A DNA stretch of 57,418 nucleotides from Candidatus Woesebacteria bacterium RIFCSPHIGHO2_01_FULL_38_10 (lineage in GTDB: Bacteria; Patescibacteriota; Microgenomatia; UBA8517). The stretch lies in assembly GCA_001792215.1 (NCBI GenBank), contig MGGC01000040.1:3653-61070 (forward strand). The letters are read 5' to 3'. Under the pieces are notes generated by a model that saw only the letters and a list, made by a program, of their open reading frames with translations, did no database searches and had not been told where the DNA came from. The translations under genes and the position numbers were made by a program. This document shows, in pieces, positions 1 through 52,005 of this stretch; positions within the stretch are counted from its first letter, which is position 1; the number at the start of each line of letters is the position of its first letter.

Positions 1-111
1 AACTACGTTGCCGGAAAGGTCATTCTCCCGCCGACTTATACTTTCCCAAAGCGGTGGATATTTGCAGTCCGGATCCAGTCTGTGAAGATTTTTCTGCTTG
101 AAATCCTTCAT
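1..111 (-). CDS. 5' end of an unidentified ORF running off the left edge (MKDFKQKNLHRLDPDCKYPPLWESISRRENDLSGNVV...)
   Basis: ATG at 111..109 (minus), open to position 1. Too short in-window for the ORF track. Locally more GC-rich than the surroundings. No family recognised. Confidence 0.3.
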   Translation of the reverse strand, partial: MKDFKQKNLHRLDPDCKYPPLWESISRRENDLSGNVV

Positions 112-123
112 TTTAAACTAGAT

Positions 124-337
124 ACAAGTTTCACACTTCCCTTAACAACATCTTCCTCGAAACTTGTTGCGAAGTATTATCTCTAAAAAAAGATGTTATC
201 TTTGCTTCGAGAATAACCACCTCGGATGGTGACCCGAAGGGACTCCTCCGAGATAATGTCAGTTGGCAACATCCACCTCCGAGGTGTCTGCAAAGATAGG
301 CCTGTCTACCACAGGCAGACCTGTCTTTGAAACTTGT
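124..337 (-). mobile_element. MITE-like repeat, composite copy R1 (inverted relative to copy R4)
   Basis: Termini ACAAGTTTC (124..132) and GAAACTTGT (329..337), with an extra internal GAAACTTGT at 159..167. The 50-nt core 217..266 is the reverse complement of 50879..50928 with 3 mismatches. Flanked by the direct repeat CTAGAT (118..123 and 339..344). Confidence 0.75.
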
Positions 338-338
338 G

Positions 339-2915: not shown

Positions 2916-4316
2916 CTATAGACATCCCAAAATCTCTCTTGCCCATTTGTAGCTGTAGCCTGCACCCATCACGATAACAACGTCCCCTTTTTTAACCTCT
3001 TTTTTAACTCTATATGCAATTTGGACTGGCGAGGGAATGAATTTTATATCCTTGTGACCCGAAACTTTTACAATCGAGTGACTACTCACGCCAAACTTTT
3101 CCTTATCTCTTGCTTTAAATATTGGACCTATTATTACTTTATCTGAATCAGCAAAAACTCCTTTATATTTTTTAAGGAGCGCTTTTGTTCTTGAAAAGGA
3201 GTGTGGCTCGTAAATAACCCAGATACGATTCCCTGGGTGTTTTTGGCGAAGGGCTTCAATTGTAAGTTTGACTGCTGTTGGATGATGGGCGTAATCATCG
3301 TATAGTTTAACGCCCCTCTTTTCTCCGATCAACTCAAGTCTTCTACTGACTCCCTTAAAAGAACGAAGAGCCTTTTTAATAACTTGTGAATTTATCCCAA
3401 TAAACTTGGCCAAAATCACAACACCCGCAGCATTTGCAACATTATATTCTCCGGGAATACTTAAATAATATATATTATTTAAGTCTAGGTCCTTCGATTC
3501 CAATAAAAAGGTTGTTCCTTTGCAGTCTTTACTTTTAATTGTCATTTTTATTAATTTGACGAGGCGAAATTTCTTCATCTTGAAAGTGTAACCATAAATC
3601 CTAAGCGATTTGAGAAACTTACCAGGAAGTGTCGATAAGAGCTTTTTTACACCGGGTGAGTCAGCATTAACAATCAACATTTTTTCTCCCTTAAGCCTCT
3701 TTACGAACTTGGCGAAACTTTCAATGACCTTTTCTTCAGAGGAAAAATAATCCGGGTGGTCAAATTCAATATTATTTATAACTATAAACTGGGGGGTATA
3801 GTTAAAAAAATTATCATAAAATTCATCAGCCTCGGTGACAAAATACTCTCCCTTGCCAAATCTATAATTGGCCCTCCACTTTTTAACTTGGGCGCCGATA
3901 ACAACCGAAGGATCAAGAGAGGCTTTTTCTAAAAGAAGGCCTGCTAAAGCTGTTGTTGTCGATTTTCCATGTGTCCCGGCAACACAAATTACTTTTTTCC
4001 CTTTATGCAAAAAGTCTCCTAAAAATTTTTCCCAGGTAACTAGAATTCCTTTCTTTTCAGCCTCTCTTACCTCAGGCTGTTGGGGTTTTTTATATAAAAC
4101 TGCAGGTGAAACTACAACTAAATCCACATTTTTAAGGTGTTTTTCATCATGCCCAAAAAATACTTCTCCAATTTCTCTCCTGACTTGGGAAATGTAGGCT
4201 GTTTTAGCTTCCAAATCACAACCGCTCACTTCAAATCCAATCCTTTTTGCGATTAAGGAAACTGCCGAATTACCACTCCCACCAATACCTATAAAATGAA
4301 TCTTTTTTGTCCTCAT
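2916..4316 (-). CDS. murC: UDP-N-acetylmuramate:L-alanine ligase
   Basis: 466 aa. N-terminus KIHFIGIGGSGNSAVSLIA, P-loop GTHGKSTTT, DDYAHHP motif. Confidence 0.9.
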   Translation of the reverse strand: MRTKKIHFIGIGGSGNSAVSLIAKRIGFEVSGCDLEAKTAYISQVRREIGEVFFGHDEKHLKNVDLVVVSPAVLYKKPQQPEVREAEKKGILVTWEKFLGDFLHKGKKVICVAGTHGKSTTTALAGLLLEKASLDPSVVIGAQVKKWRANYRFGKGEYFVTEADEFYDNFFNYTPQFIVINNIEFDHPDYFSSEEKVIESFAKFVKRLKGEKMLIVNADSPGVKKLLSTLPGKFLKSLRIYGYTFKMKKFRLVKLIKMTIKSKDCKGTTFLLESKDLDLNNIYYLSIPGEYNVANAAGVVILAKFIGINSQVIKKALRSFKGVSRRLELIGEKRGVKLYDDYAHHPTAVKLTIEALRQKHPGNRIWVIYEPHSFSRTKALLKKYKGVFADSDKVIIGPIFKARDKEKFGVSSHSIVKVSGHKDIKFIPSPVQIAYRVKKEVKKGDVVIVMGAGYSYKWAREILGCL

Positions 4317-6607: not shown

Positions 6608-6620
6608 AAAGATAGAAGTA

Positions 6621-7919
6621 TTATTCGACTTCCTCGATTTCAGCTCCAAGCATCTTTAGGTTTTCGGAAAAATGGGGGTGCCCCCGATACAGAGCATCCG
6701 CATTAAGAATTAATGATTCTCCTTCGGCAATCATCACAGCCATTACCATTGCAACTACTGCTCGGATTATGTACGGTGCCTCTAAAGTTGCACTAGTGAG
6801 TTTTTGCCCCGCAATTACAATTATTCTGTGAGGGTCGCACATTACGATATTTGCTCCCAGCTTGTTAAGCTCGCTTGTCCAAAAAAGTCCAGCTTCGTAC
6901 ATCCAATTGTGAAACAACGCTTGGCCTTTTTTAGCCGAAAGGGCAATTGGGATAAAAATCGGTAAAAGGTCAACAGGCAGCGCCGGCCATGGTTGTGCTT
7001 TTATTGTTAGAATGCGCCTGCCTTCCTCTTCAGATTTAATTTGAATCTTTTGATTTGCCTCAAGAATGGCTGTCTCGCCTTTATAATAAATATTAATATT
7101 AAATTTTGAAAAAATTTCGTTTATCTGATGAAAAAGAAAGGGTAACGCATGATGAACTTTTATTCTCCCGCCTGTTACCGCAGCCATCGCCAGAAAAGTT
7201 GCGATTTCGTAGTGATCACTAAAAAGACTGTGGTCAACCCCGGAAAATTCTCCTACACCCTCTATCTCCAAAACGTTTGATCCAATCCCTTGTATTTTTA
7301 CACCAGCAGAACTTAAAAAATTACAAAGGTCTTGAACCTGTGGCTCAGAGGCAGCCCCGACTATCCTGGTTTTACCTTTGAGATTAGAAGCAAGCATAAG
7401 AGCGTTTCCTGTCGCAGTTGGACTCATTTCAGAAAGCCAAAATTCGCTTCCGTTTGCCTTTGTCGCATCCATTTTTACTCCATGAGAGGTTTCTTGAATT
7501 TTTACTCCCAAGTGCCTAAAAGCATCGTAATGGGGAAATAGCGTTCTAAAACCTAAAGTACATCCTCCGGGTAATTCATCAAAATTCACCTTTCTAAATC
7601 TGGCAAGCATTGGTCCCCAAAGAAGCGATGTTCCGCGCATATTGCCAAGATCATCCTTACTTATGTTATTAAAAGATAGTTCAGAATTATCAATCTTCAT
7701 CTCTTTCTCCTTTCTATTCCACTCAATTTTACTTCCCAGCTTCTTCATTATCGTAAGAAGTCTTTCAACATCTGAAACCTCAGGTACATTTCTTAAAATC
7801 ACTTCTTGATTAAACATTAGCGATGCTGGAAGAAGAAAGACAATGGAATTTTTGCTACCGGAAGGATATACTTCTCCAGAAAGTTTTTGTTTTCCTTTTA
7901 CGCGGATATTCACAGGCAA
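6621..7919 (-). CDS. murA: UDP-N-acetylglucosamine 1-carboxyvinyltransferase
   Basis: MurA-like from ...VNIRVKGKQKLSGEVYPSGSKNS onward. The ORF-track N-terminal extension to 8213 overlaps ftsI and is not MurA-like. The probable start is TTG at 7919 (or ATT/ATA at 7922/7928), just after the ftsI stop (TAG, 7932..7930). Confidence 0.85.
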   Translation of the reverse strand: MPVNIRVKGKQKLSGEVYPSGSKNSIVFLLPASLMFNQEVILRNVPEVSDVERLLTIMKKLGSKIEWNRKEKEMKIDNSELSFNNISKDDLGNMRGTSLLWGPMLARFRKVNFDELPGGCTLGFRTLFPHYDAFRHLGVKIQETSHGVKMDATKANGSEFWLSEMSPTATGNALMLASNLKGKTRIVGAASEPQVQDLCNFLSSAGVKIQGIGSNVLEIEGVGEFSGVDHSLFSDHYEIATFLAMAAVTGGRIKVHHALPFLFHQINEIFSKFNINIYYKGETAILEANQKIQIKSEEEGRRILTIKAQPWPALPVDLLPIFIPIALSAKKGQALFHNWMYEAGLFWTSELNKLGANIVMCDPHRIIVIAGQKLTSATLEAPYIIRAVVAMVMAVMIAEGESLILNADALYRGHPHFSENLKMLGAEIEEVE

Positions 7920-7929
7920 AATAAGTATA

Positions 7930-9642
7930 CTATTTTTCAGGCTGAATTCCAAAATATAAAAACAAATCCCTGGCAATAGCGTACCACAAAGGCGCCGCTG
8001 TTTCTGAGGCCCACTGAGAGCTTTCAGGCTCTTGTAAACTAACCAGCATAATAAATTTTGGATCGTCATAGGGAGCAAACCCAATAAATGAGGCAATTGT
8101 TTTTTCCTCATCGTAATGACCTGAAATCGGAATCTGAGCAGTACCGGTTTTACCGGCAATCTTAAAACCTGCCTGATGTGTCCACTTCGATTCTCCTTTT
8201 TTGGCTGCTTCAACCATCATGGCAGTTACCTGAGCTGCTGTTCCTTCAGAAATTACTCTTTGCTCATGTTTCTGATTAACATCTTCTTTCCAATTCTCTC
8301 CAATAAGTTGATCAACAACGTTGGGTTTGACTAAAATACCTTTATTAGCTATCGCGCTGACGGCTCGGACCATTTGAAGCGGGGTCGTTGCAATGCCTTG
8401 ACCAAACGCAGCTGTTGCCAAATCCACATCGCTCCAACTACTCTTTTCTCTTAACTTAGGAGCAATCTCTCCCTGAAGATCAATCTCAGTTTTATCTTCA
8501 AATCCAAATAATTTAAGGTAATCGTATAACTTTTCCTTTCCCAGCTTATTGGCAACAAATACCATCCCCACATTGTCTGAATTTATAATGACATCCTGCA
8601 TATTTGAATCTTTATTGTATTTCCTGTTCCATGTCTCAATTAAATATTTATCGACTTTATAAGGACCGCCACATATTTCACACTTTGTTTCTGGTGTAAC
8701 TACACCGTTATCTAACGCGGATGCCATGACAACCACTTTAAAAATTGATCCAGGTTCAAAGGATGAGGAAATCGCCGGATTAATGAAAAACTCATCTCCG
8801 TACTCCCAATAGGAAGACTGATCGTATGCCGGGTACGAACCCATTGCTAAAACCCTACCATCCTGAGGATTCATAACTATAGCAGTCCCCGACTTGGCCC
8901 CATATTTTTCAACCCCTTCTTTTAATTTTTTTTCCAAAGTTATCTGTATTGCTTTGTCTAAATGAGTTAATAAACTTATTCCCTGGATGGCTGAGACCTT
9001 TTTACTATCTTCAATAAAAATTGGGGAGCCTCGCGCGTCGGCTTCTCGAGACAAAAAACCAGGCCTTCCACTCAAGGATAAATCATAATAGCCTTCAAGT
9101 CCAAAATAACCCAGGTCTTCTCCTTGAGCGTTCTTGCCCACAAATCCTAATATATGTGCCGCAACTGACCCTTCGGGATAATCCCTGATCTCTTCTGGCT
9201 CAAAACCTATACCCTTTATTCCTAAAGCCTCAATTTGTATTTTGACTTCATCATTTACTCTGTGTTTAAGAGGAACCCAAACACTATTCTCTCGAGAAAG
9301 AAGTTCTTTTAATCTATCAGCCTCGGACAATACAGCTTTTTCCCCATCTTTTTCTTGGACAAAAAGGAAGCTCAGCTGGTCAGCAATTTTATTATGATCA
9401 TCATCAATCTTATCCAAAGACGCATAAACTAACCACCCCTGAGAACTTGCAGCAAGCCAGGTTCCATCTGAGGCTAAAATTTCACCTCTGAACGCGTCAA
9501 TTGAATGGCTGGATTCATATTGACTTCTTGCTTGAATGGATAACTCTTTACCCTTATAAATTTGCCAATAAAACAGTCTAACTACAAGCACAAGGAAGGC
9601 TATAAAGAATGCAAAAGAATAAAGTTTTAGACGGATAGACAT
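7930..9642 (-). CDS. ftsI: Penicillin-binding protein 2/3-type transpeptidase (FtsI-like)
   Basis: 570 aa. N-terminal TM anchor, PBP dimerisation region, transpeptidase motifs SIFK (SxxK) and KTGTA. Confidence 0.85.
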   Translation of the reverse strand: MSIRLKLYSFAFFIAFLVLVVRLFYWQIYKGKELSIQARSQYESSHSIDAFRGEILASDGTWLAASSQGWLVYASLDKIDDDHNKIADQLSFLFVQEKDGEKAVLSEADRLKELLSRENSVWVPLKHRVNDEVKIQIEALGIKGIGFEPEEIRDYPEGSVAAHILGFVGKNAQGEDLGYFGLEGYYDLSLSGRPGFLSREADARGSPIFIEDSKKVSAIQGISLLTHLDKAIQITLEKKLKEGVEKYGAKSGTAIVMNPQDGRVLAMGSYPAYDQSSYWEYGDEFFINPAISSSFEPGSIFKVVVMASALDNGVVTPETKCEICGGPYKVDKYLIETWNRKYNKDSNMQDVIINSDNVGMVFVANKLGKEKLYDYLKLFGFEDKTEIDLQGEIAPKLREKSSWSDVDLATAAFGQGIATTPLQMVRAVSAIANKGILVKPNVVDQLIGENWKEDVNQKHEQRVISEGTAAQVTAMMVEAAKKGESKWTHQAGFKIAGKTGTAQIPISGHYDEEKTIASFIGFAPYDDPKFIMLVSLQEPESSQWASETAAPLWYAIARDLFLYFGIQPEK

Positions 9643-9649
9643 TTAAACA

Positions 9650-9967
9650 TTATGGTTTTCCTGCAAATGAATCTCCTGGAGTCAAATAAATCACTTTTTC
9701 TAATCTTTCAAAACCCAAATCTTTCGCTTTAGCTTCTACTTCTGCCAGTGATGTTTTCTGAACCAACTCTCTTGAAAGTTTTTTATTTTCACTTGACAAC
9801 CTCTCCTCCTCCTTTTCATACAAAGAAAGGGTTGTCCCTAAGGTTACAGCTTTTATTGTCAAAACTAGCTCAAAAATGATAAACAAACCCAAAAATAGGA
9901 TGCTTATATTTTTTTTGTCTAGGATCTTTTTCTTTTGAGAAATTACCTTTTTACGTCTGTCTCTCAT
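9650..9967 (-). CDS. ftsL: FtsL-like cell-division protein (single TM + coiled coil)
   Basis: 105 aa. TM segment ISILFLGLFIIFELVLTIKAV followed by a heptad-like charged region. Sits at the canonical position between rsmH and ftsI. ATGA overlap with rsmH. Confidence 0.5.
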   Translation of the reverse strand: MRDRRKKVISQKKKILDKKNISILFLGLFIIFELVLTIKAVTLGTTLSLYEKEEERLSSENKKLSRELVQKTSLAEVEAKAKDLGFERLEKVIYLTPGDSFAGKP

Positions 9968-11040
9968 ATTTTTTCCAAAACGCGCATTTTAGCGCTTCTT
10001 GATCTGGGGTTTCTGAACATTTCCTCAGTTGAGGCTAATATTGGTTTTCTGGTAATAATTTTCCCTCCACTTTCTTTAAAAAATTCTTTAACGATTCTAT
10101 CCTCCCCTGAGTGAAAACTAATCACGATAAGGCAACCCCCTTTCCTCAAAACCTTTAAGGCTTTGGGCAAAGCTTCTTTCAAATTTTCAAGTTCACTATT
10201 TACCACAATCCTCAATGCAAGCATGGAAAGTGTAACTGGATGTAATTTTTCTCCCTTCTTGCTTGCGAAAAGTTCCAAAAAATCTGAAACTACCTTAAAT
10301 TTCTTTACCTTTCTTTTCTCAGCAACCATTCGCGCAAGATTCCTTGCTTTACCTTCAGGCAAAACGATCTTAAAAAGTTGAAACAACTTTTTCTGATCTA
10401 GGCTGTTAAGCAAATCGGATGCCCTAATCTTTTGAGTTTTCTTATCCATCCTCATATCAAGCTCATCTTTAGTATTTTTGAATGAAAAACCTCTTGACTC
10501 GGAGGCCAGTTGATGACTGGAAACTCCAAGATCAAAAAGAATTCCGTAAACTTCTCTAAAACCATACTTTTCCAAAATACTATCCAGGTCTTTAAAATTA
10601 CCATGAATAGCCACAAAGCGCAGCCTTGCAAAAAGCGGATAAATCTTATTCGTTCGAGAATGCCTCGCGGCAAGACGCGAGGATGAATGAGCGAACGAAC
10701 TTGCCGAAGGATACTTCGTAGCAGAGCTACGAACCAGTTCATCGTCTGAATCGTTTAAGGTAAGCTCTGGTAAAGACCGAGATACTTTCCTTAACCTCTC
10801 TTCAGCAATCCTCAAAGAATCGCAATCTGTCTCTATTCCTAAAACAAAACCACCTTCTTGGATAATCTTCTCGCTATGCCCACCCAATCCCAAGGTGGCA
10901 TCAATAATCAGGGGGTGTACTTTTAAATGTGCAAATTTCTTTAGCTTAAGCGCTTCAACTACTTCACGAACCATAACAGGATCATGAAGATTTTGACTTC
11001 TCAGTCTGTTTTCCATTTTGATTCTTTTTCTCTTCTTCAA
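9964..11040 (-). CDS. rsmH: 16S rRNA (cytosine1402-N4)-methyltransferase RsmH with a ~50-aa internal insertion
   Basis: Motifs HDPVMVREV, IIDATLGLGGHS, ILFDLGVSSHQL, SFHSGEDRIVK. The track start is TTG at 11040; the ATG at 11016 (MENRLRS) is more likely. Confidence 0.85.
   Translation of the reverse strand: MKKRKRIKMENRLRSQNLHDPVMVREVVEALKLKKFAHLKVHPLIIDATLGLGGHSEKIIQEGGFVLGIETDCDSLRIAEERLRKVSRSLPELTLNDSDDELVRSSATKYPSASSFAHSSSRLAARHSRTNKIYPLFARLRFVAIHGNFKDLDSILEKYGFREVYGILFDLGVSSHQLASESRGFSFKNTKDELDMRMDKKTQKIRASDLLNSLDQKKLFQLFKIVLPEGKARNLARMVAEKRKVKKFKVVSDFLELFASKKGEKLHPVTLSMLALRIVVNSELENLKEALPKALKVLRKGGCLIVISFHSGEDRIVKEFFKESGGKIITRKPILASTEEMFRNPRSRSAKMRVLEKI
10649..10733. repeat. GC-rich nested/double hairpin inside the rsmH reading frame
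   Basis: TTCGTTCG (10649..10656) pairs with CGAACGAA (10692..10699) and encloses CCTCGCG (10663..10669)/CGCGAGG (10676..10682). A second hairpin is TTCGTAGC (10715..10722)/GCTACGAA (10726..10733). Confidence 0.6.
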
Positions 11041-13805: not shown

Positions 13806-13876
13806 AATGACTTGATTATATACCCAATTTAATTGACTTTGTAAGTTTTGTACGGGACCAGTACTTTTTAGCACTA

Positions 13877-13914
13877 TCCACCCCCAGGGTGGATTAGATA
13901 CGCCACCTCAGGGT
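13877..13914. repeat. Partial copy (A) of the ~55-nt hairpin repeat family 2
   Basis: CCACCCccaGGGTGGattagatacgCCACCTCAGGG. Shares the CCACCC..GGTGG hairpin and the tacgNCACCTCAGG arm with 19968..20022 and 36605..36660. Confidence 0.5.
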
Positions 13915-17635: not shown

Positions 17636-18289
17636 TCATATCGCCCCTTTTCCCGATATCATTACCCAAGGGGTCTTGAGAAGAATAAGGAAATCCAAAA
17701 AAAGCGATTTTTTCCTAGCATAATACGCATCCATCTCAATTCGTTTATCAAAATTAACTTCACTCCTTCCGGTAACCTGCCAGTATCCTGTTATACCTGG
17801 CCTTACCGTCAACATCTCCTTTACATATTTTTCTGTACCGGGAAACTTTCCCTGCTGCTCACTCAACTCTTCGGGCAAATATGGCCTTGGTCCAACTATG
17901 CTCATCTCCCCTTTTAGTACATTAATAAGTTGAGGAATTTCATCTATTGAGTGTTTCCTAATAAATTTTCCGACTTTGGTAATTCTGGAATCATTGAACG
18001 ATTTGTACTTACCACTCGTACGTTTTTCTATATAGACACTCCTAAATCTAGGATCTATCTTTTCTAATTTATCTGCATCAACCATCATTGATCGGAATTT
18101 GTATAACCTAAAAACTTTCCCGTTTTTACCCAATCTCTTCATATGAACATTGGTTTTTTCAACCAAGATAGGACCTGTTGAAGTTAATTTTATTAGAACT
18201 GCGGAAACTAGTATGATCGGAGAAAAAAAGATCAGAAGTAGAATCGACCCGACTACATCAGTTAGTCTTTTGATAGTTGCGTAAAACAT
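17636..18289 (-). CDS. Polyprenyl-phosphate phosphoglycosyl transferase (small monotopic PGT, WbaP/PglC-like)
   Basis: Motifs KRLTDVVGS, YKFRSM, DEIPQLINVLKGEMSIVGPRP. The track start at 18355 overlaps manC; the ATG at 18289 (MFYATIKRL) fits the family N-terminus. Confidence 0.85.
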   Translation of the reverse strand: MFYATIKRLTDVVGSILLLIFFSPIILVSAVLIKLTSTGPILVEKTNVHMKRLGKNGKVFRLYKFRSMMVDADKLEKIDPRFRSVYIEKRTSGKYKSFNDSRITKVGKFIRKHSIDEIPQLINVLKGEMSIVGPRPYLPEELSEQQGKFPGTEKYVKEMLTVRPGITGYWQVTGRSEVNFDKRIEMDAYYARKKSLFLDFLILLKTPWVMISGKGAI

Positions 18290-18335
18290 ATCCAGGCAGG
18301 CAATTATACAACTATATAACAAACTTGAGCATTCT

Positions 18336-19460
18336 TCAGAGATACTCTTTTTCACTCTTTTGTTTTAGTTGTTCAACAATTTTTTTTACATTTTGGGCCT
18401 TACTCTTAGAGCAGATCAATAAAGCATCGTCCGTATCAACAACAATAATATTATCAACATCGATTATTGCAATGAGCCTTCCGTCTGTATGAATCAGTGC
18501 GTCTGAAGTATCAAGATTAATGACTTCACCACCGGGAGCATCACCATCTATAACAACATTACCGTACTCGTCCTTAGTCAAATTCTTCCAAACCTCATTC
18601 CAATCCCCTATATCCGTCCATTCATAGTCAGCAACAAGCATTAAGAAGTTTTTCGCTTTTTCAGATACTGCGTAATCGACAGAAATCTTTGGCATCAGGT
18701 TGTAATACTTTTCCAACACTTGTTTCTCTTTTTTTGTCCCAATAAATTTGCCTATCATCATCAAATTTTTATATATTTCAGGCTGGTAGTTTGAAAGAGC
18801 TTGCAGAAACGAATCCGCCTTCCAAACATATTGGTTTGCATTCCAGAAATAATTTCCCGAAGAGGTATACCTTTTGGCTTGAGGTAAAGGAGGTTTCTCA
18901 ACAAATTTGTCTAACTTGTAAACAATCTTTCCTTCGACTGTCTTTATTTTCTTTCCCCTTCTGATATGCCCCATACCGGTATGGGGATAACTGGGCCGCA
19001 CCCCGACTGCAACCAAAAAATTCCCCTCGTAGGCCACACAAGATGCGGCGTACATTATTTTTTTATAATTTTTTTCAGGACGGATAAAATGATCAGAAGC
19101 TGCGTTAATTATTACAGCCTGATCATCCTTTTTATAAATATGCAAAGCCCCCAATCCATGAGCCGGGGCTGTATCTCTGCGAGCCGGCTCGACAATAATA
19201 TGATTTTTGGGTACAGACGGAAGAAGGCGTTTTATCTCTATCTCGTATTTTATCGTTGCGGTTGATATAAAAATTCTCTCCCAAGGCAAAAACTTTCTCA
19301 GCCGTTCAATAGTAATCTCAAGAAGAGTTTTATTTCCGAAAAGTTTCAGAAATTGTTTTGGGGTTTTATCTCTTGATCTGGGCCAAAGCCTTGTCCCTCC
19401 ACCACCAGCCATTACTAAAGCGTATAAATGATCTTTATAACTTTTTGCGGACATTTCCAA
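18336..19460 (-). CDS. manC: Mannose-1-phosphate guanylyltransferase-like NDP-sugar pyrophosphorylase
   Basis: 374 aa. N-terminal ALVMAGGGGTRLWPRSRDKTPKQFL. Confidence 0.8.
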   Translation of the reverse strand: MEMSAKSYKDHLYALVMAGGGGTRLWPRSRDKTPKQFLKLFGNKTLLEITIERLRKFLPWERIFISTATIKYEIEIKRLLPSVPKNHIIVEPARRDTAPAHGLGALHIYKKDDQAVIINAASDHFIRPEKNYKKIMYAASCVAYEGNFLVAVGVRPSYPHTGMGHIRRGKKIKTVEGKIVYKLDKFVEKPPLPQAKRYTSSGNYFWNANQYVWKADSFLQALSNYQPEIYKNLMMIGKFIGTKKEKQVLEKYYNLMPKISVDYAVSEKAKNFLMLVADYEWTDIGDWNEVWKNLTKDEYGNVVIDGDAPGGEVINLDTSDALIHTDGRLIAIIDVDNIIVVDTDDALLICSKSKAQNVKKIVEQLKQKSEKEYL

Positions 19461-20631
19461 TAACCTTTAAAAATTCTTTCTTAAACTTTTTTTCTGTAAA
19501 CCTTTTTGCATTTCTAAGTAATTCATTTCTACTAAATTTCAGTTTTTCAAACCGGTTAATTGCAGATATTAAACTTTTTTTATCCTGTTTGTCAAAAAAT
19601 ATACCCGTTTTAGTGTCGATTACAGTATCAAGTGCGCCACCCACTCCGTATGCTATCACCGAACACCCTGCAGCCTGTGCTTCAACAGAAACCAGACCAA
19701 AATCCTCTTCCTGCGGAAAAATTAAAGCGCGCGCATTCTGATAGTAACCTGCGAGTTCGCTATCTGTCAAATTCTTCACAAATTTAATATTTCTGCCTGC
19801 CATCTTTTTTAATCTTCCCTCTTCTTTTCCGGAACCGACAATAATTAACCTATGTCCAAGTTCATTAAGCGCTTCAATCACCAAATCCACTCTTTTATAC
19901 TTCACAAGCCGGGAGACAACCAGATAAAACCCTTTACTTTTACTATCCCTTCTCCTTCTCATTCTTCCCTGATGTGTCAAGGACATTCCACCCTTAGAGT
20001 GGAATAGGTACGACACCTCAGGATTCTGCCGATCTCTATCCACGGAACTATCTCCAAACACAGACCTTTTGAAACTAAGTGGTGGAAATATCAGTTTTAC
20101 CTCCCTGGCGTAATACTTCCTAATTCTTTCTCTAACCGCTAACGAAATTGCAACCATTTCATCCGGTCTTTGGGCAGCAATTAAATCCCAATGTTTAAGA
20201 TAGAAAACCAGCGGTTTTGTTACAGCCCTAAAAACCGCATTTTTAAAATAAAGCTCATAATGGCTCCATAGGTAACGCGTAGGCGTAAGACAGTAGCAAA
20301 CATGTAAAGTTCCCGGTTTTGTAATTACCCCCTTTGCCGCCTCCGAGGTCACAGAAATTACCAAATCATAACCAGAAAAATCAAACGATTCGAAAGCCAA
20401 AGACATCAAAGGCGCCAGTAATTCATGCCTGTCCCGCAGAAATGAAAACTTTTGTAAAAAACTGGGAATTACTTCGGGGAAAACATTCGCCCAAGGAGCT
20501 TTTTCTCGAGAATAGACAGAAGTATAAAGAGGCGCATCTGGAAACATTTCATGAAGCATTAAAAGAACTCTTTCCGCTCCACCCCATTTATTTACCCGAT
20601 CATAAACCAGAGCAACTTTATCATATTGCAT
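19435..20631 (-). CDS. GT4 (group 1) glycosyltransferase carrying a repeat-derived inter-domain insertion
   Basis: 398 aa. Has GGAERV near the N-terminus and the C-terminal EEDFGLVSVEAQAAG motif. The linker DRDRQNPEVSYLFHSKGGMSLTHQGRMRRRRDSKSK is encoded by and around repeat copy B. Confidence 0.8.
   Translation of the reverse strand: MQYDKVALVYDRVNKWGGAERVLLMLHEMFPDAPLYTSVYSREKAPWANVFPEVIPSFLQKFSFLRDRHELLAPLMSLAFESFDFSGYDLVISVTSEAAKGVITKPGTLHVCYCLTPTRYLWSHYELYFKNAVFRAVTKPLVFYLKHWDLIAAQRPDEMVAISLAVRERIRKYYAREVKLIFPPLSFKRSVFGDSSVDRDRQNPEVSYLFHSKGGMSLTHQGRMRRRRDSKSKGFYLVVSRLVKYKRVDLVIEALNELGHRLIIVGSGKEEGRLKKMAGRNIKFVKNLTDSELAGYYQNARALIFPQEEDFGLVSVEAQAAGCSVIAYGVGGALDTVIDTKTGIFFDKQDKKSLISAINRFEKLKFSRNELLRNAKRFTEKKFKKEFLKVIGNVRKKL
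19968..20022. repeat. Hairpin repeat family 2, copy B, inside a coding sequence
   Basis: CCTGATGTGTC...CCACCCttagaGTGG...GACACCTCAGG. The outer arms are complementary with 1 mismatch. It aligns as the reverse complement of 36605..36660. Confidence 0.65.
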
Positions 20632-28829: not shown

Positions 28830-28849
28830 AAACTAATTCGTACTTTCTT

Positions 28850-29772
28850 TTCCAAACGAAGCAGATATTTTTGTCACAAAAGAAAGTGCGGCAAAAAAAC
28901 TCAACCATTAATTACACACAGGCTTTTTGCAAAACATCTAAAGTTTTCTTTAGTTCGCCCAGGAAAACTTTTAAATCTGTTTCAAACCAACCTCTACAAG
29001 TTTATCATACTCTCTCTTATCTGAACCTATAACCTTTTTTACTCCTTGAAAAATACTTTCGCGACTCTATGGGTTAACACAAGTTTCACACTTCCCTTAA
29101 TAACATCTTCCTCGAAACTTGTGATTAGAGAAAAAAGCGGACAAAAGACCCTCCATATTCTCACTCGGTTTAGGAGTTGGCAAAAAAAGTAAATAATTTT
29201 TCCTAATCCTATATTTTTAAAGAAAATGTCGCATAAAATTTTTAGGCATATTTGTGTTGAATTTATCTTTACCGTAACCATATAGAATAACCTTGACCTT
29301 TTTCCTGCTAAAATAGTAATGTCGTACAATGTCTTTTTTAGTCGTTTTAGAGGGACAGATGATATACTTTGATATAATTATAGAAATAGCACTCCAGTAC
29401 TTTAATTGCCAATAATCTTTTCTTTTAAATTGTTCCGAAAACTTGAGGTATCCAAGATCATGAATAGTAGTAACTTTAGGAATTAAAGATATGGGGGGTA
29501 AATAATGACTCGGACCAAAAAGACATCCGTTTTCCGGTAGCCAATAGATAAGGCACTAACTTCACAAGTACCCAAAACTTTCCACCTTTAATAACTTTGT
29601 ACTTCCAAAACCTGCTTTCCGGGGGCAAATCATCAAGAGCCCTATTTTTTAAATAAACACAAAACCTGTGTCTTATATCCTGTAGTTTACAAGAACCCCA
29701 TAAAATTTCAAAAGAGTACTGATGTACTCCAACCCCCTGAGAAACATTGACCTCATCACCGTCTATACCTTA
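28850..29772 (-). pseudogene. Decayed GT4 glycosyltransferase gene (multiple frameshifts/stops), interrupted by a 44-nt MITE-like module
   Basis: My hand translation of the minus strand gives GT4-like pieces in different frames. These are GIDGDEVNVSQGVGVHQYSFEIL..., IPKVTTIHDLGYLKFSEQFKRKDYW...KVKVILYGYG, KNYLLFLPTPKPSENMEGLLSAF, then after the repeat KKVIGSDKREYDKLVEVGLKQI and KVFLGELKKTLDVLQKA. Compare the intact paralogue at 30079..31176. Confidence 0.6.
29079..29122 (+). mobile_element. MITE-like repeat, 44-nt minimal module (copy R2)
   Basis: ACAAGTTTCacacttcccttaataacatcttcctcGAAACTTGT. Differs from 124..167 by a single C/T mismatch. 9-bp terminal inverted repeats. Confidence 0.75.
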
Positions 29773-30078
29773 ACATATATTTATATAAACTAAGTAGACT
29801 GTGCAAACTGTCTCGAAGCTACCTGAAAAACTTCTCCATCAACAAGCCAATTGTAGACCGTTGAAATGCTTTAGTGCAAGAAAATTTAAAGTATTTTGGG
29901 CATAAAGACATTTTCACAACCTGAGTAATCTTTTTATACTTAACAAACTCGAGTTTGTAATTACAAACGAGAGTTTTTGAATATACACAAGTGCCTTAAG
30001 ATACTGCAAATTCAAGTAAGACAGGTATATTAACTCTCTTTCACGACAGGAAGTTTTTTAGAATCACAAATGTCTTAA

Positions 30079-36604: not shown

Positions 36605-36660
36605 CCCTAGGGTGTCGTATCTTTTCCACCCTTGGGGTGGTTTGTCCTTGACACCTCAGG
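36605..36660. repeat. Hairpin repeat family 2, copy C (intergenic)
   Basis: CCCTAGGGTGTCgtatcttttCCACCCttgGGGTGGtttgtccttGACACCTCAGG. It is the reverse-complement homologue of 19968..20022. Confidence 0.65.
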
Positions 36661-46556: not shown

Positions 46557-47483
46557 TTATTTTCGGGCAACGGCTTTATGCATGGGCCAAAAAAGAGGGC
46601 TTTTGACACATAGGTAGGTAAATAACCTTTTACTCCAGGAAGGTAGAGACTCCAGGACTAGATAAGTATCAAATCTAGTGATATCTGTCTTCTTAAAACC
46701 TGCAACTTTATGAAGATTTTTCAAAGTTGATGCTAAAAAAGAAAGTTCATAACCGAAAGACATGTGTTTACCCTTTAATAAATTAAGATTAACAAATTCA
46801 AAAATTTGTCTGACTACCGGAATGTTTGGTATGTTCCCCCACCTGAATCTGTAAAGAGTTCCCAAGTTAAGGCAGGGCACTGTATTAAATGAAACTCCAC
46901 CTTTTTTTAAAATTCTATAAATTTCCGTTAAAACAACCTTAGTATTCTTAAAGTGTTCAATAGTGCCCCCCCCGTAAACAAAGTCAAAAGAATCGTTTGC
47001 AAACGGCATCTGGGTTATATCACCACAGACAAATAAAGTGTTTTTAATTCCAAATCTTTTGGCAAACTTTTGAGCAATCTTAAGCGCGGAGGTAGAGAAA
47101 TCAATTCCGATAATCATGCTGCCCTTCTTTCCGTAATAAAGTCCCAAATACCCCGGACCGCAGCCAATTTCTAAATAAACGGTGCCCTTTCCTATTTTTT
47201 TTGAGGCGTCAATCTGTTCGACAATTTTGGGTTGATGATTTAATTGATAATCATCCATATCTTTTAAGTATTCCTTAGTTTTTAACTTCTTTTCATATAT
47301 GGCATCCCACTTCTCCATACTCAATTTCACATCATCAGTTATTTCAGGTATTAATACAGGAAAGCCATACTTAAACCCGTACTCCTCGCCACATTTGCCA
47401 CATATGAGTCTCCTTTTTTCTTGTCGAAGGACGAATTTACAAACCGGACAGACCAATATCCTTAATTGACTTTTTGACAGCAT
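46557..47483 (-). CDS. Trm112-like zinc-ribbon + class I SAM methyltransferase fusion
   Basis: 308 aa. N-terminus LRILVCPVCKFVLRQEKRRLICGKCGEEYGFKYGFPVLIPE, then YLEIGCGPGY and FDFVYGGGTIEHF. Confidence 0.8.
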   Translation of the reverse strand: MLSKSQLRILVCPVCKFVLRQEKRRLICGKCGEEYGFKYGFPVLIPEITDDVKLSMEKWDAIYEKKLKTKEYLKDMDDYQLNHQPKIVEQIDASKKIGKGTVYLEIGCGPGYLGLYYGKKGSMIIGIDFSTSALKIAQKFAKRFGIKNTLFVCGDITQMPFANDSFDFVYGGGTIEHFKNTKVVLTEIYRILKKGGVSFNTVPCLNLGTLYRFRWGNIPNIPVVRQIFEFVNLNLLKGKHMSFGYELSFLASTLKNLHKVAGFKKTDITRFDTYLVLESLPSWSKRLFTYLCVKSPLFWPMHKAVARK

Positions 47484-47516
47484 ATCTGACTACTCCAGCA
47501 CAAAACACATAATATC

Positions 47517-47596
47517 ACAAGTTTCGTAGACACCTCTAAATCATCTCCGAGGAGTCTCTTCGGGCCACCATCCGAGGTGGTAAGTACAAAACTTGT
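47517..47596 (+). mobile_element. MITE-like repeat, 80-nt copy R3
   Basis: ACAAGTTTC...atctccgaggagtctcttcgggccaccatccgaggtgg...AAAACTTGT. The core matches R1/R4. It lies between the 779-aa gene stop and the methyltransferase start. Confidence 0.7.
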
Positions 47597-47612
47597 AATT
47601 TGGTAAATTTGT

Positions 47613-49952
47613 TTAACTCGATTCAAACAAATCTGGATGTGTATTTCCTACAAAGTTTCTTCTGTAAAGACCATAAGTTAAAGACAATGCAATTAAAAAA
47701 AGAATCGACCCGGCATAAAAACTCCTGGGAACATATTGCATGACAATAACATGATCGCCTGGCCGATCAATAACAACGCCTTTTACAAGACTGTCTGCCA
47801 TGTAACTGTTCACCTTATTCCCGTTTAAAAAAACTTTCCAATTTCTGTCAAATGTATTGCTGTAAATAAAAAATCCCTTATGATCGGTTCTAAAAATGGA
47901 TTTCATAAAACCCGGTTCTTCAACAAATTCAGAAAACTCAAAACCTGACTTTTTTATATCTCTTATACGATAATCATTTGAGTCTTTAATCACTTTACCA
48001 CCATTTGCTTTGTAGGTCGTTATTAGATCGTCAACATACGTCTGATTACGAATTAGGGGGTCATTGAGAATCAACACATCAAACATCTTTAATTCTTCCA
48101 ATGTATAGTCATCAAGATACGGGCTTTGTCCACTGAATACCGACTGTTCCATCGGAATAAATTCCTCGCTATAGATAATCTTCCTAGCCAGATTAGAGTT
48201 AAATTTGTCTTTCTCTTGTTTTCCGACAATTAAGGACCCATTAGTAACGAAGTAAGGACGATCTCGAGTTTTTAACATCTCAAAAACAAAAACTGGATTT
48301 TCGTTTACGCTTCCGCCCTCGTTTATCACTCTAACTTTCGACACAAACTTGGGGTTATTATAAGTTTCCTGCTCTTTCTCCCAGATAAATAAGTACTTTG
48401 TGTTAAGAATCGAGAATGTTTTGAAATTATTTTCCCAAGGCGTACCTTTACTAATAGTGGAATAGAAATAAGGCGACGTTGGTCTGTAATATGGGCCAAT
48501 TGAATCAAGATTATCCCTATTTACCGACTCATAAGTGTAAAAGTTAAGCCCGGGTGATTCATACCCTAAAATCGCCCTATAAGGATCACTATTGTTGGAT
48601 TTGGACGCTGAGAACAACGTCACGTTCGAACTTGAATATTCTGTGAACTCAGTTTCTTCAATAAAAAACTGCGCTTGGTCAATAAATATACGAAGTGGGG
48701 GAATAATTAGTACAAAAAAAACAATCGTCAATATATTTAAATATCTTATTTTTCTCATCCAGTTGACAAAAAAATTAAGGCCTAAACAAAAAAGTAAGGG
48801 TAAAACGAAATAGACGTTTATTAAGAAACGGATCGTATAATGTGCAGACTTGAAAAAAGGCACAAGGTAATAAAAGAGAGAATAGAAATCAATTGGAATT
48901 GAAGAGCCAAAAGATGCCAACAGTGAAACCAAAAAAACAATAAAAATGGGAAAAGTAATCTTTAGTCTTTTTCGATCAAACAAAGACGCCAAAGAAAAAA
49001 GATAAAGACTAACATGGAAACCTTTAAATATGTTATTGATCTTTCTAGTTGACTCTATCTTAAGAAAAAATTCCTGTGTCAGTTTACTTATTATCGTTTG
49101 ATAATATTTGGGAGTTACATCGGCCTCGGCTGACTCAAGGCTAAGATCTTTTCTTAGTGAATCACTTAAAGATTCTTGTACTGGAAGTAGTTTGGGAGCA
49201 GAAAAAATAAATGCAAAGATTATAAAAGTAACGAACAACTTACTCAGTCCCAACAAATAATTAAGGTTTCTTGTTTTAGAATTGTTAATCAAATTAAACG
49301 CCAAATAAGATAAAAAAAATATTCCTAATGCAACTGCCGCATAAGTTGTATTATATAAAGCCCCACCATGAATCAACATTGAAAAAACAAATCCCAAAAA
49401 CGCTGTGAATATGTACTTTCTTGTTATTAACATTTCTATAAAAAGTAATAAAATTAGTGGAAACCAAGCAATCATAATCAAGTCGGAACGAAAACCGTTT
49501 TGAAATATTAAACTTGTCTCAGTGTTATACAGATAAAAAAAAGAACCAACAGTCGCTACGATTATATTCACTTTTAGTAATTTAGTTAAAAGAAGAAAGA
49601 AAAATGCTCCCAGAAAATAGTGTATAAAAAAGGAGATTCGAGTCGCATAAAGTTGATCCCTAAAAGGGAAATTTATTAAGTAGGTCAAAGGGTAGGTTTG
49701 TGGATATGAAGGATTGCCTATTGCAGAGCTTCCCGACCCAAGTTTATTGTCCCATAACAATATTTTATGTTTTTCTATAAAATATTGTCTTATTTTTGCA
49801 ATAGGATATGTTTCAAACACAATCGACTCACCAATTGTGTATCGAGTATCATCTGTTATCAGCCTTGAATATATAGCCGAAGTCACTATTAGAGCAATAG
49901 AAGCATAAACAAAGTATATCCATAAGTATTTACTAAATTTAAGCAGTTTCAT
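47613..49952 (-). CDS. Giant polytopic membrane protein (YfhO-like architecture), possibly distantly related to the 961- and >1026-aa proteins
   Basis: 779 aa. ~13 hydrophobic segments, ~330-aa soluble domain, C-terminal TM GSILFLIALSLTYGLY. ATGA overlap with the upstream methyltransferase gene. Confidence 0.75.
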   Translation of the reverse strand: MKLLKFSKYLWIYFVYASIALIVTSAIYSRLITDDTRYTIGESIVFETYPIAKIRQYFIEKHKILLWDNKLGSGSSAIGNPSYPQTYPLTYLINFPFRDQLYATRISFFIHYFLGAFFFLLLTKLLKVNIIVATVGSFFYLYNTETSLIFQNGFRSDLIMIAWFPLILLLFIEMLITRKYIFTAFLGFVFSMLIHGGALYNTTYAAVALGIFFLSYLAFNLINNSKTRNLNYLLGLSKLFVTFIIFAFIFSAPKLLPVQESLSDSLRKDLSLESAEADVTPKYYQTIISKLTQEFFLKIESTRKINNIFKGFHVSLYLFSLASLFDRKRLKITFPIFIVFLVSLLASFGSSIPIDFYSLFYYLVPFFKSAHYTIRFLINVYFVLPLLFCLGLNFFVNWMRKIRYLNILTIVFFVLIIPPLRIFIDQAQFFIEETEFTEYSSSNVTLFSASKSNNSDPYRAILGYESPGLNFYTYESVNRDNLDSIGPYYRPTSPYFYSTISKGTPWENNFKTFSILNTKYLFIWEKEQETYNNPKFVSKVRVINEGGSVNENPVFVFEMLKTRDRPYFVTNGSLIVGKQEKDKFNSNLARKIIYSEEFIPMEQSVFSGQSPYLDDYTLEELKMFDVLILNDPLIRNQTYVDDLITTYKANGGKVIKDSNDYRIRDIKKSGFEFSEFVEEPGFMKSIFRTDHKGFFIYSNTFDRNWKVFLNGNKVNSYMADSLVKGVVIDRPGDHVIVMQYVPRSFYAGSILFLIALSLTYGLYRRNFVGNTHPDLFESS

Positions 49953-50716
49953 TTATTTGCTCTTTTATATAATGTCAAACTAGACCCGCATAAAACGACT
50001 CTAATTACGGGAATCTTCTCAACAAAAGCTTCTGATCGTTTCAATAATATTGCAATCCATTTGGGGCAGAAATAAGGAACCGTACCAAAAACATACTGCT
50101 CCACTACCTGATAACCTTCTTCTGAAAACCAATTATTTAAAGTTTTCGTCGAATAGGACTTTTCTTCATGCTGTCTGTGATAAGCAGATGTTTTTTCAAT
50201 TACTTTCAGTATCGGGTTATAGCCATTCGGTTCTAAGACTAATATGTATTCAAAATATCTGCTCAAATTTTTTATTGCTTTTTGAGGGTAATACAAGTGA
50301 TGCAACACTCCCTTCACCAACGCAATATTATAATTACCCTCCTTCTTTAAAAAATCGAGCTCATATATATTATCGACTCTAAATTTAATTAACTTCATAT
50401 ATTTCTTAGGAACCATTTTCCTGGCCCTGATAACAGCTTGTCTTGCGGGATCAACGCCGACAATTCGCTTAAGTTTCGATTGATTAAATATCTCTATCGT
50501 GTATTTCCCATCTCCGCAACCTATATCAATTACACTAATTTTTCCACCAAAGTTTCTCCCTATGCATTCTATAACCTCTTTAGACTGTCTTTGGTTTGCA
50601 ATAAAAGCTGGATAGAGATCTTTATTGGTATAAATATAACTCCCGGTCAAAGTAATATCTTTGTTATAAAAGTCAATATTTTTCTCTGTCCCAAACTTAG
50701 ATTTACTTTTGGCCAT
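49949..50716 (-). CDS. Class I SAM-dependent methyltransferase
   Basis: 255 aa. VIDIGCGDGKYT, VGVDPA, GVLHHL. Confidence 0.8.
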   Translation of the reverse strand: MAKSKSKFGTEKNIDFYNKDITLTGSYIYTNKDLYPAFIANQRQSKEVIECIGRNFGGKISVIDIGCGDGKYTIEIFNQSKLKRIVGVDPARQAVIRARKMVPKKYMKLIKFRVDNIYELDFLKKEGNYNIALVKGVLHHLYYPQKAIKNLSRYFEYILVLEPNGYNPILKVIEKTSAYHRQHEEKSYSTKTLNNWFSEEGYQVVEQYVFGTVPYFCPKWIAILLKRSEAFVEKIPVIRVVLCGSSLTLYKRANK

Positions 50717-50762
50717 ATTAAGGAAATCGACATTCTACCCAAATTCTAAAATCTTACCAGTC

Positions 50763-50953
50763 ACAAGTTTCGCAGACAGGCTTGCCTGCGCAAGACAAGC
50801 TTAAACCACCTTCGAGATGTGCGAAGCCAGGTACCATACAGTACTTGGCGAAGTACTCCTCGGAGGTGGATGGATTTACCAACTGACATTATCTCGGAGG
50901 AGTCCCTTCGGGCCACCATCTGAGATGGCTATTAAGGGAAGTGTGAAACTTGT
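50763..50953 (+). mobile_element. MITE-like repeat, 191-nt full-length copy R4
   Basis: Termini ACAAGTTTC (50763..50771) and GAAACTTGT (50945..50953). Flanked by the direct repeat ACCAGT (50756..50761 and 50954..50959). Its internal modules are shared with R1, R2 and R3. Confidence 0.8.
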
Positions 50954-50979
50954 ACCAGTGTCTAATTTAGAATTCTTTT

Positions 50980-52005
50980 TCAATCCTGGTAATTTTCCAA
51001 GCCCCCTCCGACATAACGATAATAGGATAGGCGGGGGTTTTTGAAAATATATTGATTAACTAGACTACCCGGCACTTTTCTTATTTCTGATTGAATACGT
51101 TTTCTTTCTCTTAAGGTGTTATTTAAATTTAGTAAATTTGCTCCTATTGCATGAAGAACAGCAAACCCTTTCTCATAATTACCTTTTGCGACTTCCACAA
51201 AAGTTACTCCAATAAGGGTAAATATATGGATAGGCAAAAGCCACAAAAGAGTTGGTAATTCAAAATTTTTTATAAATGACCTGATTCTGTTGCGGTGACT
51301 TTTAAAAACGGTATCAATATTGTCCCTTTTTTTGTAAGTCGCACCCACAAAATGCTCCACTACCGCTCTAGGTGTATACCAACACTCATAACCTGAAAGC
51401 CACACTCTATGACAAAAATCACTCTCTTCAAAATATGCAAACATATAATCATCCAAAAATCCTGTCTTTTCAATAACTTTTCGACGGATAAGTATACAAG
51501 CCCCCTTACCCGAATAAACTTTCAAGTCAGAATTATACTTTGGATCGTCTGCGTCTTTATAAAGTCCGAAATAATACGGAATGCCAGTTTTAGTCAGATA
51601 TGCGCCAACGTTATCAAGTTTTTTATTATCAGACATAAAGACAAGCTTTGGTTGTACGACTCCCGCCTTTTTGTGGGTTTTGAAAAAATCGACAAGCTTG
51701 TCGATTACTTCTTTATCAAACTTTGTATCTGCATTCAAAAGTAAAATATATTCTCCCTGTACTTTTTTATAAGCCAAGTTGTTACCTTGCGCAAAACCTA
51801 AATTTTCTTTACTTTCAATGAGAGTAAAATTTTTTTTCCTGGTATATTTCTTTAGGGTTTCAAGTGAAGAGTCAGAGGAGGCATTATCGAGAACTATAAC
51901 TTCATAGTTTTTATAAGTCTGGTAAAATATTGATTTAAAACAATCATCAAGAAATTCTTGCTGATTCCAATTAACAATCAATATTGAAACCAATCCTTTT
52001 TTCAT
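50980..52005 (-). CDS. GT2 glycosyltransferase
   Basis: 341 aa. VSILIVNWN, VLDNASSDSS, LNADT, FEESDFC. Confidence 0.85.
   Translation of the reverse strand: MKKGLVSILIVNWNQQEFLDDCFKSIFYQTYKNYEVIVLDNASSDSSLETLKKYTRKKNFTLIESKENLGFAQGNNLAYKKVQGEYILLLNADTKFDKEVIDKLVDFFKTHKKAGVVQPKLVFMSDNKKLDNVGAYLTKTGIPYYFGLYKDADDPKYNSDLKVYSGKGACILIRRKVIEKTGFLDDYMFAYFEESDFCHRVWLSGYECWYTPRAVVEHFVGATYKKRDNIDTVFKSHRNRIRSFIKNFELPTLLWLLPIHIFTLIGVTFVEVAKGNYEKGFAVLHAIGANLLNLNNTLRERKRIQSEIRKVPGSLVNQYIFKNPRLSYYRYVGGGLENYQD

Follow-up and report, generated by a model that had tools for sequence, protein, structure and literature searches.

The DNA considered here is a window of 57,418 nt from contig MGGC01000040.1 of Candidatus Woesebacteria bacterium RIFCSPHIGHO2_01_FULL_38_10. 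It has a GC content of 36.5% and a strongly negative GC skew, and the minus strand carries nearly all genes. These include a cell-wall (dcw/mur) cluster with mraZ, rsmH, a penicillin-binding protein (PBP) gene, murA and fused Mur ligases, among them a MurB-MurD fusion, after which comes a long series of glycosyltransferase, methyltransferase and polysaccharide genes; a scan of the window for tRNA and tmRNA genes returned none. Look-ups of exact protein matches assign the window to contig MGHD01000022.1 of assembly GCA_001793025.1. The contig to which the window belongs (71-74 kb) has been re-assembled repeatedly from Rifle-type groundwater metagenomes, and its nearest relatives are Candidatus Woesebacteria, members of the Microgenomates within the candidate phyla radiation (CPR). 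Between a methyltransferase gene (49949..50716, minus strand) and a glycosyltransferase (GT2) gene (50980..52005, minus strand) lies a short non-coding element, copy B (50762..50954, plus strand), which is antisense to both neighbours. An inverted counterpart, copy A (123..338, minus strand, 216 nt), is sense to its flanking genes and sits directly 3' of the stop codon of the open reading frame (ORF) that encodes the MurB-MurD fusion (339..2879, minus strand). [quoted passage not shown]

On the plus strand, positions 50756..50959 read ACCAGT-C-ACAAGTTTC...GAAACTTGT-ACCAGT, and positions 118..344 read CTAGAT-ACAAGTTTC...GAAACTTGT-G-CTAGAT, the architecture of B inverted. Copies A and B align end to end, at both termini and in the core, with internal indels as the only differences, which bears out the description of the two copies in an earlier note made from the letters of the window. 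That note gave the element 191 nt and 9-bp inverted repeats; its bounds are here refined to CACAAGTTTC...GAAACTTGTA, so that copy B measures 193 nt and the inverted repeats 10 nt, of which 9/10 are complementary and the outermost base is mismatched (C vs T). These ends are common to A, B and two copies at locus L013 (L013-1 and L013-2), and carry one or two substitutions in copies C, D and E. Inverted repeats of the kind that define a MITE are present, though 10 nt is short by the usual definition, which asks for 10-15 bp or more. The interior is rich in GC and in hairpins, as had been described: copy B has 50.3% GC and copy A 44.9%, against 36.5% for the window, the plus strand of B folds at -84.6 kcal/mol (z = -7.2 relative to dinucleotide shuffles), and the CCC-TTCG-GG and CCATC..GATGG hairpins both form part of a module termed H2. 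No ORF is confined to the copies and no protein-family match extends over them, although a dubious 96-aa ORF (29039..29329) spans copy C. At 46-404 nt the copies are short and non-coding, as is typical for MITEs (about 50-800 bp).

Each of the two copies is bracketed by a perfect direct repeat. Around B this is CCAGT (50757..50761 on the left and 50955..50959 on the right), with the hexamer ACCAGT beginning one base earlier; around A it is CTAGA on the plus strand, or TCTAG on the strand of the element (118..122 and 339..343), where the MurB-MurD ORF terminates at a TAG stop codon in bases 339..341. The junctions of three further copies read cAAGTA|CACAAG...CTTGAA|AAGTA for E, tAGAAC|CACGAG...CTTGTA|AGAAC for L013-1 and tACTAA|CACAAG...CTTGTA|ACTAA for L013-2. 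A perfect 5-bp duplication is found at all five long copies with canonical ends, each time with a different sequence (CCAGT, TCTAG, AAGTA, AGAAC, ACTAA) and with no motif common to the five targets, so that the duplication is constant in length and variable in sequence, as it is in MITEs. The earlier note had read it as 6 bp. In each of the five long copies, however, CTTGT is followed by A; this sixth base therefore belongs to the element, of which it is the last base, and the hexamers at A and B arise because the host base before the pentamer happens to be A too. A 6-bp model is rejected, since it leaves three of the five copies mismatched at the sixth base, the base on the element side always being A. 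Two identical 5-mers at fixed offsets are expected by chance in this window with P = 0.002 (P = 0.0006 for 6-mers), and for the eight copies with both ends intact enough to compare, at least five matches are expected with P = 1.7e-12, or 1.8e-9 if four registers are allowed. An unbiased scan of all fetched DNA for the termini plus equal 5-mers returned these copies only; L013-1 has diverged ends and was recognised by eye. Copy B is further surrounded by a 9-bp inverted repeat of the host (AATTCTAAA at 50742..50750 and TTTAGAATT at 50966..50974). Its flanks joined through a single pentamer would read ...ATCTTACCAGTGTCTAATT..., and the reconstructed empty site forms an AT-rich palindrome (9-bp stem, 17-nt loop), with B inserted in the loop.

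Further copies, which the earlier note expected of a mobile element, are present in the window (C and D), elsewhere on the contig (E) and in aquifer metagenomes. C and D were found by a repeat scan and pattern search of the window; an exact search of metagenome contigs with the right terminus AAGGGAAGTGTGAAACTTGT gave 8 loci, 6 of them with genuine copies. The other two (L008/L012), an exact 20-mer match, were rejected as a chance match in a contig that is nearly free of ORFs and eukaryotic-looking. A MAFFT alignment of 11 distinct copies or variants (four from the window, one from the same contig outside it, the others from the same aquifer metagenomes) describes the family as a mosaic of about eight hairpin modules, of which the copies hold differing subsets between their termini, with lengths of 46-404 nt. 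The modules are M1 (a short hairpin), H1 (a 64-nt hairpin), a linker, H2 (a hairpin of 38 nt whose loop is C(UUCG)G), X, Y, an internal second copy of ACAAGTTTCG, and Z (about 130 nt, in which three loops are C(GUAA)G). H2, located at 50888..50930 on the plus strand in copy B, is the best-conserved part of the family; it is counted in 10 of 11 copies, is missing only from C and from the contig-truncated copy H, and occurs on its own in other CPR genomes. Copy B itself consists of the left inverted repeat, M1, H1, the linker, H2 and the right inverted repeat, and has neither X, Y, the internal repeat nor Z. Compared with longer copies, everything between two TATT repeats is gone (X, Y and the internal repeat), and B, which had been called full-length, is a deletion variant of a family whose longer members carry extra modules and reach 404 nt. 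Copy A holds the left inverted repeat, M1, a collapsed H1, the linker, H2, Y, the internal ACAAGTTTCG repeat and the right inverted repeat.

The two remaining copies of the window are reduced forms. Copy D (47516..47597, plus strand, 82 nt), between ORFs 46557..47483 and 47613..49952, keeps the left inverted repeat, H2 and a degenerate right inverted repeat (ACAAAACTTGTA), and is an internal-deletion derivative. Copy C (29078..29123, minus strand, 46 nt) equals the last 44-46 nt of long copies, from the internal ACAAGTTTCG repeat to the right inverted repeat, which is exactly the remainder expected if a deletion had joined the terminal ACAAGTTTCG repeat to the internal one. The 1.25-kb gap that contains C (28830..30078), apparently intergenic, carries on its minus strand a frameshifted, stop-riddled GT4-like pseudogene (for example with a ...ENMEGLLSAFFS motif). 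Copy E (18018..18321 in record L024) lies on the same contig just beyond the window, between a FemAB-like gene and mraY. With it, five copies are found on one contig of 71-74 kb, four of them in the window, and the others occupy separate loci in the same samples. Across at least 10 unrelated loci the copies occur in both orientations (six sense and three antisense to neighbouring genes), and all are intergenic except C. The family is thus present in multiple dispersed copies, as a MITE is.

Repeats of this kind could in principle be recombination scars or assembly artefacts, spread by homologous recombination, gene conversion or chimeric joins. In a 1,030-nt contig (L006, Ga0208375_1084865), the right part of A together with its right flank (98% identity to window positions 1..287) is fused to the left part and flank of copy F (L010/L011), reflecting either recombination between copies within a strain or a chimeric assembly at the repeat. 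Contigs also break within the element: several independent assemblies (L021, L022 and L023) start inside copy B, 79-178 nt upstream of the gene at 49949..50716, as is expected of a repeat that is multi-copy in those samples. Yet identical copies and junctions recur in independent NCBI, ENA, JGI and Logan assemblies, copies are spanned by long contigs of 50-78 kb, and recombination does not make a different perfect 5-bp duplication at each site. An origin by recombination or misassembly is therefore hardly credible.

Comparison with relatives bears on whether the element is a fixed part of these loci. Copy G lies in the atpH-atpA spacer (288 nt). The corresponding spacer of three Woesebacteria relatives (65-68% AtpA identity) measures 69-131 nt and contains nothing similar to the element, and in a relative of the MurB-MurD protein (42% identity) murI overlaps the 3' end of the gene, leaving no intergenic spacer. 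The earlier note had named occupation of the same syntenic site in distant relatives as a sign of a conserved cis-acting RNA; judged from these spacers, absence from the syntenic position appears to be the opposite of what such an RNA would lead one to expect. The lack of a transposase in the window, also reported earlier, is borne out by a Pfam scan of 40 window ORFs, none of which has a transposase domain; nor was one seen among the called genes of the contig portions that were read.

Taken together, it appears that the family is a non-autonomous DNA transposon, a MITE with 10-nt ends and 5-bp target-site duplications, with a probability of roughly 0.78. Five of five long copies with a different perfect flanking duplication, at unrelated loci and in both orientations, support the earlier proposal of a mobile, non-coding and non-autonomous MITE-like element. 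According to this reading, a transposase encoded elsewhere would recognise the 10-nt termini (CACAAGTTTC / TACAAGTTTC), and a 5-bp staggered cut at insertion, followed by repair, would leave the 5-bp duplication. The enzyme would most likely be a DDE-type transposase acting in trans, and the chemistry either cut-and-paste or copy-in. After insertion, deletion between short direct repeats would diversify the copies, with B arising through the TATT repeats and C through the ACAAGTTTCG repeats, and a gain of hairpin modules may add to the 46-404 nt mosaic. Those copies that are transcribed would be predicted to fold into very stable multi-hairpin RNAs.

Several observations weigh against this interpretation. 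The inverted repeats are short, at 10 nt with a mismatched outermost base. The flanking duplications that the earlier note expected of further copies are found at E, L013-1 and L013-2, but are missing at C, D and F; C and D are deletion forms, the flanks of D reading AATAT vs ATTTG with no recognisable duplication, and the left end of F is of another sequence (GCAAGTTTTGCAC). A scan of all fetched DNA for pairs of termini within 4 kb of each other, whether or not duplications flanked them, recovered MITE copies only and no autonomous element with these ends. All 26 population contigs that were read carry A or B, with no sign of recent activity. No empty site was found at the nucleotide level, the relatives compared being too distant to show one at 42-68% protein identity, and contigs with the exact MurB-MurD or methyltransferase protein all carry copies. 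H2 or H1-linker-H2 also occurs without the inverted-repeat shell at four loci in other genomes (L001, L002, L004 and L005). Finally, the structure of H2 depends on the strand: across 12 distinct variants its pairing is kept in 93.9% of cells on the forward strand vs 81.1% on the reverse, G.U wobbles fill 24 cells at 8 pair positions on the forward strand and 1 cell on the reverse, and the family contains UUCG and GUAA loops, whereas a plain double-strand cut-and-paste element needs no such strand-specific structure.

This strand dependence would fit a multi-copy structured RNA gene or a cis-acting RNA, such as a regulatory leader, a terminator, or an RNA that serves an enzyme encoded by a transposon as guide or scaffold, with the inverted repeats forming a closing helix P1. 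The very strong folding of copy B (z = -7.2) fits such an RNA, as do the C(UUCG)G loop of H2, the three C(GUAA)G loops of Z and the maintenance of H2 pairing across its variants. In 9 of 11 copies the fold of the forward strand (CACAAG to CTTGTA) is more stable than that of the complementary strand, with a margin of up to 21 kcal/mol, and the forward strand has about twice the number of G.U pairs; in addition, the internal ACAAGTTTCG repeat could pair with the 3' terminus instead of the terminal copy. True covariation in H2 is nevertheless weak, consisting of one compensatory pair, with a score matched or exceeded in 40 of 500 shuffles. Copies stand in both orientations within a one-directional gene array, a third of them antisense to all transcription units, their module content varies over 46-404 nt, and relatives are without the element at syntenic sites. 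Neither the fixed position and orientation nor the covariation of a conserved cis-regulatory RNA is found here. Rfam 15 gave no match over the whole window at gathering thresholds, so that the family is not a known structured RNA by this measure, and searches of copies B, E and F at E ≤ 10 yielded only chance-level matches (E > 1). These null results lead to the rejection of known ribozymes, introns, HEARO/omega-RNA and riboswitches. Promoter and terminator scans around A and B were not consistently distinguishable from shuffles. Since an RNA reading would also leave the flanking duplications unaccounted for, it is distinctly improbable, and the MITE interpretation is retained.

The occurrence of H2 outside the element raises a different possibility. 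A strict 24-mer search of one-genome-per-species contigs found H2 (core sequence CACCTCGGAGGAGTCCCTTCGGGCCACCATCCGAGGTG) to be identical over 38/38 positions in two Daviesbacteria, one Gottesmanbacteria, another Woesebacteria genome and one metagenome-assembled genome (MAG) labelled Gammaproteobacteria. Viral contigs had no match to the H2 core or to the right terminus. The Gottesmanbacteria locus (L003) holds a compact homologue whose termini are related (AAGTTTGCACTTTT... and ...AAAAGTGCAAAACTT) and whose order is the same, namely inverted repeat, H1', linker, H2, inverted repeat. One Daviesbacteria locus has H1'-linker-H2 without termini of this kind, and elsewhere H2 is solo (for example L002 4174..4216 and L005 741..783), from which it follows that the shell and the core may have separate histories.

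Some of these hairpins lie within protein genes. In Daviesbacteria, a solo H2 (L004 5991..6033) is in frame in a miaA ORF (5421..6395, plus strand), and at locus L001 three H2 copies (5846..6413), in both orientations and two frames, lie in a pheT-like ORF (4846..6984, plus strand). H2 is free of stop codons in all six frames, as read directly from its sequence. When the pheT product is aligned to solved PheT structures, the homologues are gapped by 13-15 residues exactly at two hairpin-coded segments, and on this alignment the pheT case proves an insertion. In MiaA, the segment coded by H2 corresponds to a variable linker of similar length in solved structures, and is not decisive alone as an insertion.

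One explanation would place the family among repetitive extragenic palindromic (REP) sequences, bacterial interspersed mosaic elements (BIMEs) or REPINs. The mobile unit would then be the hairpin rich in GC, either H2 or H1-linker-H2, which a RAYT-like or IS200/IS605-like HUH enzyme would recognise in the form of single-stranded DNA (ssDNA), and the ACAAGTTTC...GAAACTTGT shell would be one more hairpin of the mosaic. Modules that are present or absent copy by copy, in BIME fashion, are consistent with this idea, as are shell-less H2 and H1-linker-H2 in Daviesbacteria, Woesebacteria and another MAG and the identity of H2 across class-level lineages, and the asymmetry of the wobbles would suit an enzyme that recognises one strand of the DNA. 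However, five complete copies have their perfect duplications exactly outside the shell, and REP and IS200/IS605-type elements are without duplications or inverted termini. No REP head of the GTAG type is present, the copies show no orientation bias with respect to the strand presumed to be leading (3:2 on this contig), and no Y1/HUH gene was seen in the fetched loci, where Pfam was run on the window ORFs and a few locus ORFs only. With inverted termini and 5-bp duplications present, and no Y1/HUH domain among the ORFs scanned, the family does not have the features of REPs, BIMEs or REPINs, and an assignment to them, though the main rival to the MITE interpretation, is unlikely.

A MITE shell and a mobile hairpin are not exclusive ideas, as the shell may carry, or may have been invaded by, an independently mobile hairpin. 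A further-reaching proposal is that H2 or H1-linker-H2 is an independent, strand-specific mobile module that has crossed class-level lineages of Microgenomates, that the shell is only a vehicle, and that the module inserts into repeats and, in frame, into essential genes (pheT and miaA). Together with two in-frame repeat families of the window, described below, this would amount to Rickettsia-like selfish DNA inside protein genes, moved by a single-strand (RNA or ssDNA) mechanism. The proposal is a tentative one, to which we would give somewhat less than even odds.

The first of the two repeat families is represented by a two-hairpin repeat of about 100 nt (10643..10742) inside an rsmH-like ORF (9964..11040, minus strand), where its in-frame translation is ELVRSSATKYPSASSFAHSSSRLAARHSRTNK. 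Locus L013 has copies with 82-87% identity (8376..8472 and 3515..3614), read in the same frame in two unrelated genes, one for a methyltransferase and one for a thymidylate-kinase/GT1 fusion. Against T. maritima MraW (1m6y), the RsmH protein has about 60 residues where the solved protein has about 8. A search with the 32-aa peptide of this repeat, doubled in tandem as the query, gave no match at E ≤ 0.01, the query being uninformative. By analogy, its behaviour resembles that of the Rickettsia palindromic elements (RPEs). The second is a GC-rich hairpin family (CCTGAGGTGTC...TTCCACCC..GGGTGGAA...GACACCTCAGG) with a copy at 19968..20022 inside a GT4 ORF (19435..20631, minus strand), translated in frame (about NPEVSYLFHSKGGMSLTHQG) just before the C-terminal Glycos_transf_1 domain, and two intergenic copies, an inverted one at 36606..36660 and a partial one at 13870..13912. 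Insertion in frame within protein genes is thus not seen for the full element, but is seen for H2 alone in other genomes and for these two other families of the window.

Other features of the window are unusual in their own right. The MurB-MurD protein (846 aa, 339..2879, minus strand) joins FAD-binding and MurB_C domains to a MurD-like ligase, an unusual fusion, and distant relatives carry similar MurB-ligase fusions. A second unusual fusion links a Mur ligase to a nucleotidyl-transferase domain (775 aa, 4322..6649, minus strand). Downstream of copy A, a 470-nt stretch (L024 12763..13231; window positions 1..117 and past the window start) holds a single short ORF (MKDFKQKNLHRLDPDCKYPPLWE...), which begins 8 nt past the right-hand TCTAG duplication of A and 13 nt past the element; some records annotate a 104-aa Cys-rich putative ORF on the opposite strand of this stretch.

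The mobile DNA of the CPR is almost uncharted, and the present family is a dense one, with five copies in about 72 kb of a genome of roughly 1 Mb. Its consequences include fragmented metagenome assemblies, marked recombination sites, as L006 suggests, and markers for strain typing. The existence of the family implies an active or recently active transposase in reduced genomes. The H2 core, nearly identical in Woese-, Davies- and Gottesmanbacteria and present in frame in pheT and miaA, points to a horizontal exchange of tiny elements between CPR bacteria that live together, and to protein-sequence innovation through palindromic insertions, previously emblematic of Rickettsia. In line with the earlier impression that the element is undescribed, it has no Rfam match, and no description of it, or of any MITE in the CPR, was found in the literature; the text of a MITE survey of 183,232 genomes does not mention the CPR. 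Nor did the literature yield a description of RPE-like in-frame repeats in a CPR genome.

Among known systems, the closest comparison is with bacterial MITEs, for which a general definition and examples have been given (PMC11602168, PMC10969869). Like the Correia elements (CREE) of Neisseria, RUP of S. pneumoniae, MITEAba12 and the QMITEs of Coxiella, the family is small and non-coding, with inverted termini, a short duplication, dispersed and mostly intergenic copies, deletion variants, hairpins and no transposase of its own. It differs in its 10-nt inverted repeats, at the short end of the range, in the lack of a parent insertion sequence in the DNA scanned, and in its CPR host. Correia and RUP duplicate TA, and MITEAba12 duplicates 9 bp; to our knowledge, termini CACAAGTTTC with a 5-bp duplication match no named bacterial MITE family.

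In-frame palindromic inserts inside protein genes are the defining behaviour of RPEs (PMC10969869). The presence of H2 in frame in pheT and miaA, and the translation of two more families of this genome within ORFs, are similar. Unlike RPEs, the full element is intergenic, with one copy in a pseudogene, H2 is about 38-40 nt as compared with about 100-150 nt for an RPE, the host belongs to another phylum, and there is no sequence relationship. The palindrome-associated transposable elements (PATEs) of the IS200/IS605 type and omega-RNA scaffolds share GC-rich, strand-asymmetric hairpins in a short non-autonomous repeat. IS200/IS605-type elements have sub-terminal hairpins but no terminal inverted repeats and no duplication, and insert beside a fixed tetra- or pentanucleotide. 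The present family, in contrast, has inverted repeats, five different 5-bp duplications, no shared target motif and no HEARO-related Rfam match, and so does not have the characteristics of an IS200/IS605-type PATE or an omega-RNA.

BOX, RUP and SPRITE elements insert into one another (PMC10969869). Conserved end modules around a variable set of hairpins, and the nesting of modules, liken the family to BOX of S. pneumoniae and to the BIMEs of enterobacteria, with which it has no sequence similarity and from which it differs by its clear shell of inverted repeats and duplications. BIMEs and REPs have no inverted terminal repeats and no duplications, and are tied to RAYT enzymes. Seen against these systems, the family would be an ordinary kind of element, a MITE, apparently undescribed in the CPR, which combines this nature with the modularity of BOX/BIME-type repeats.

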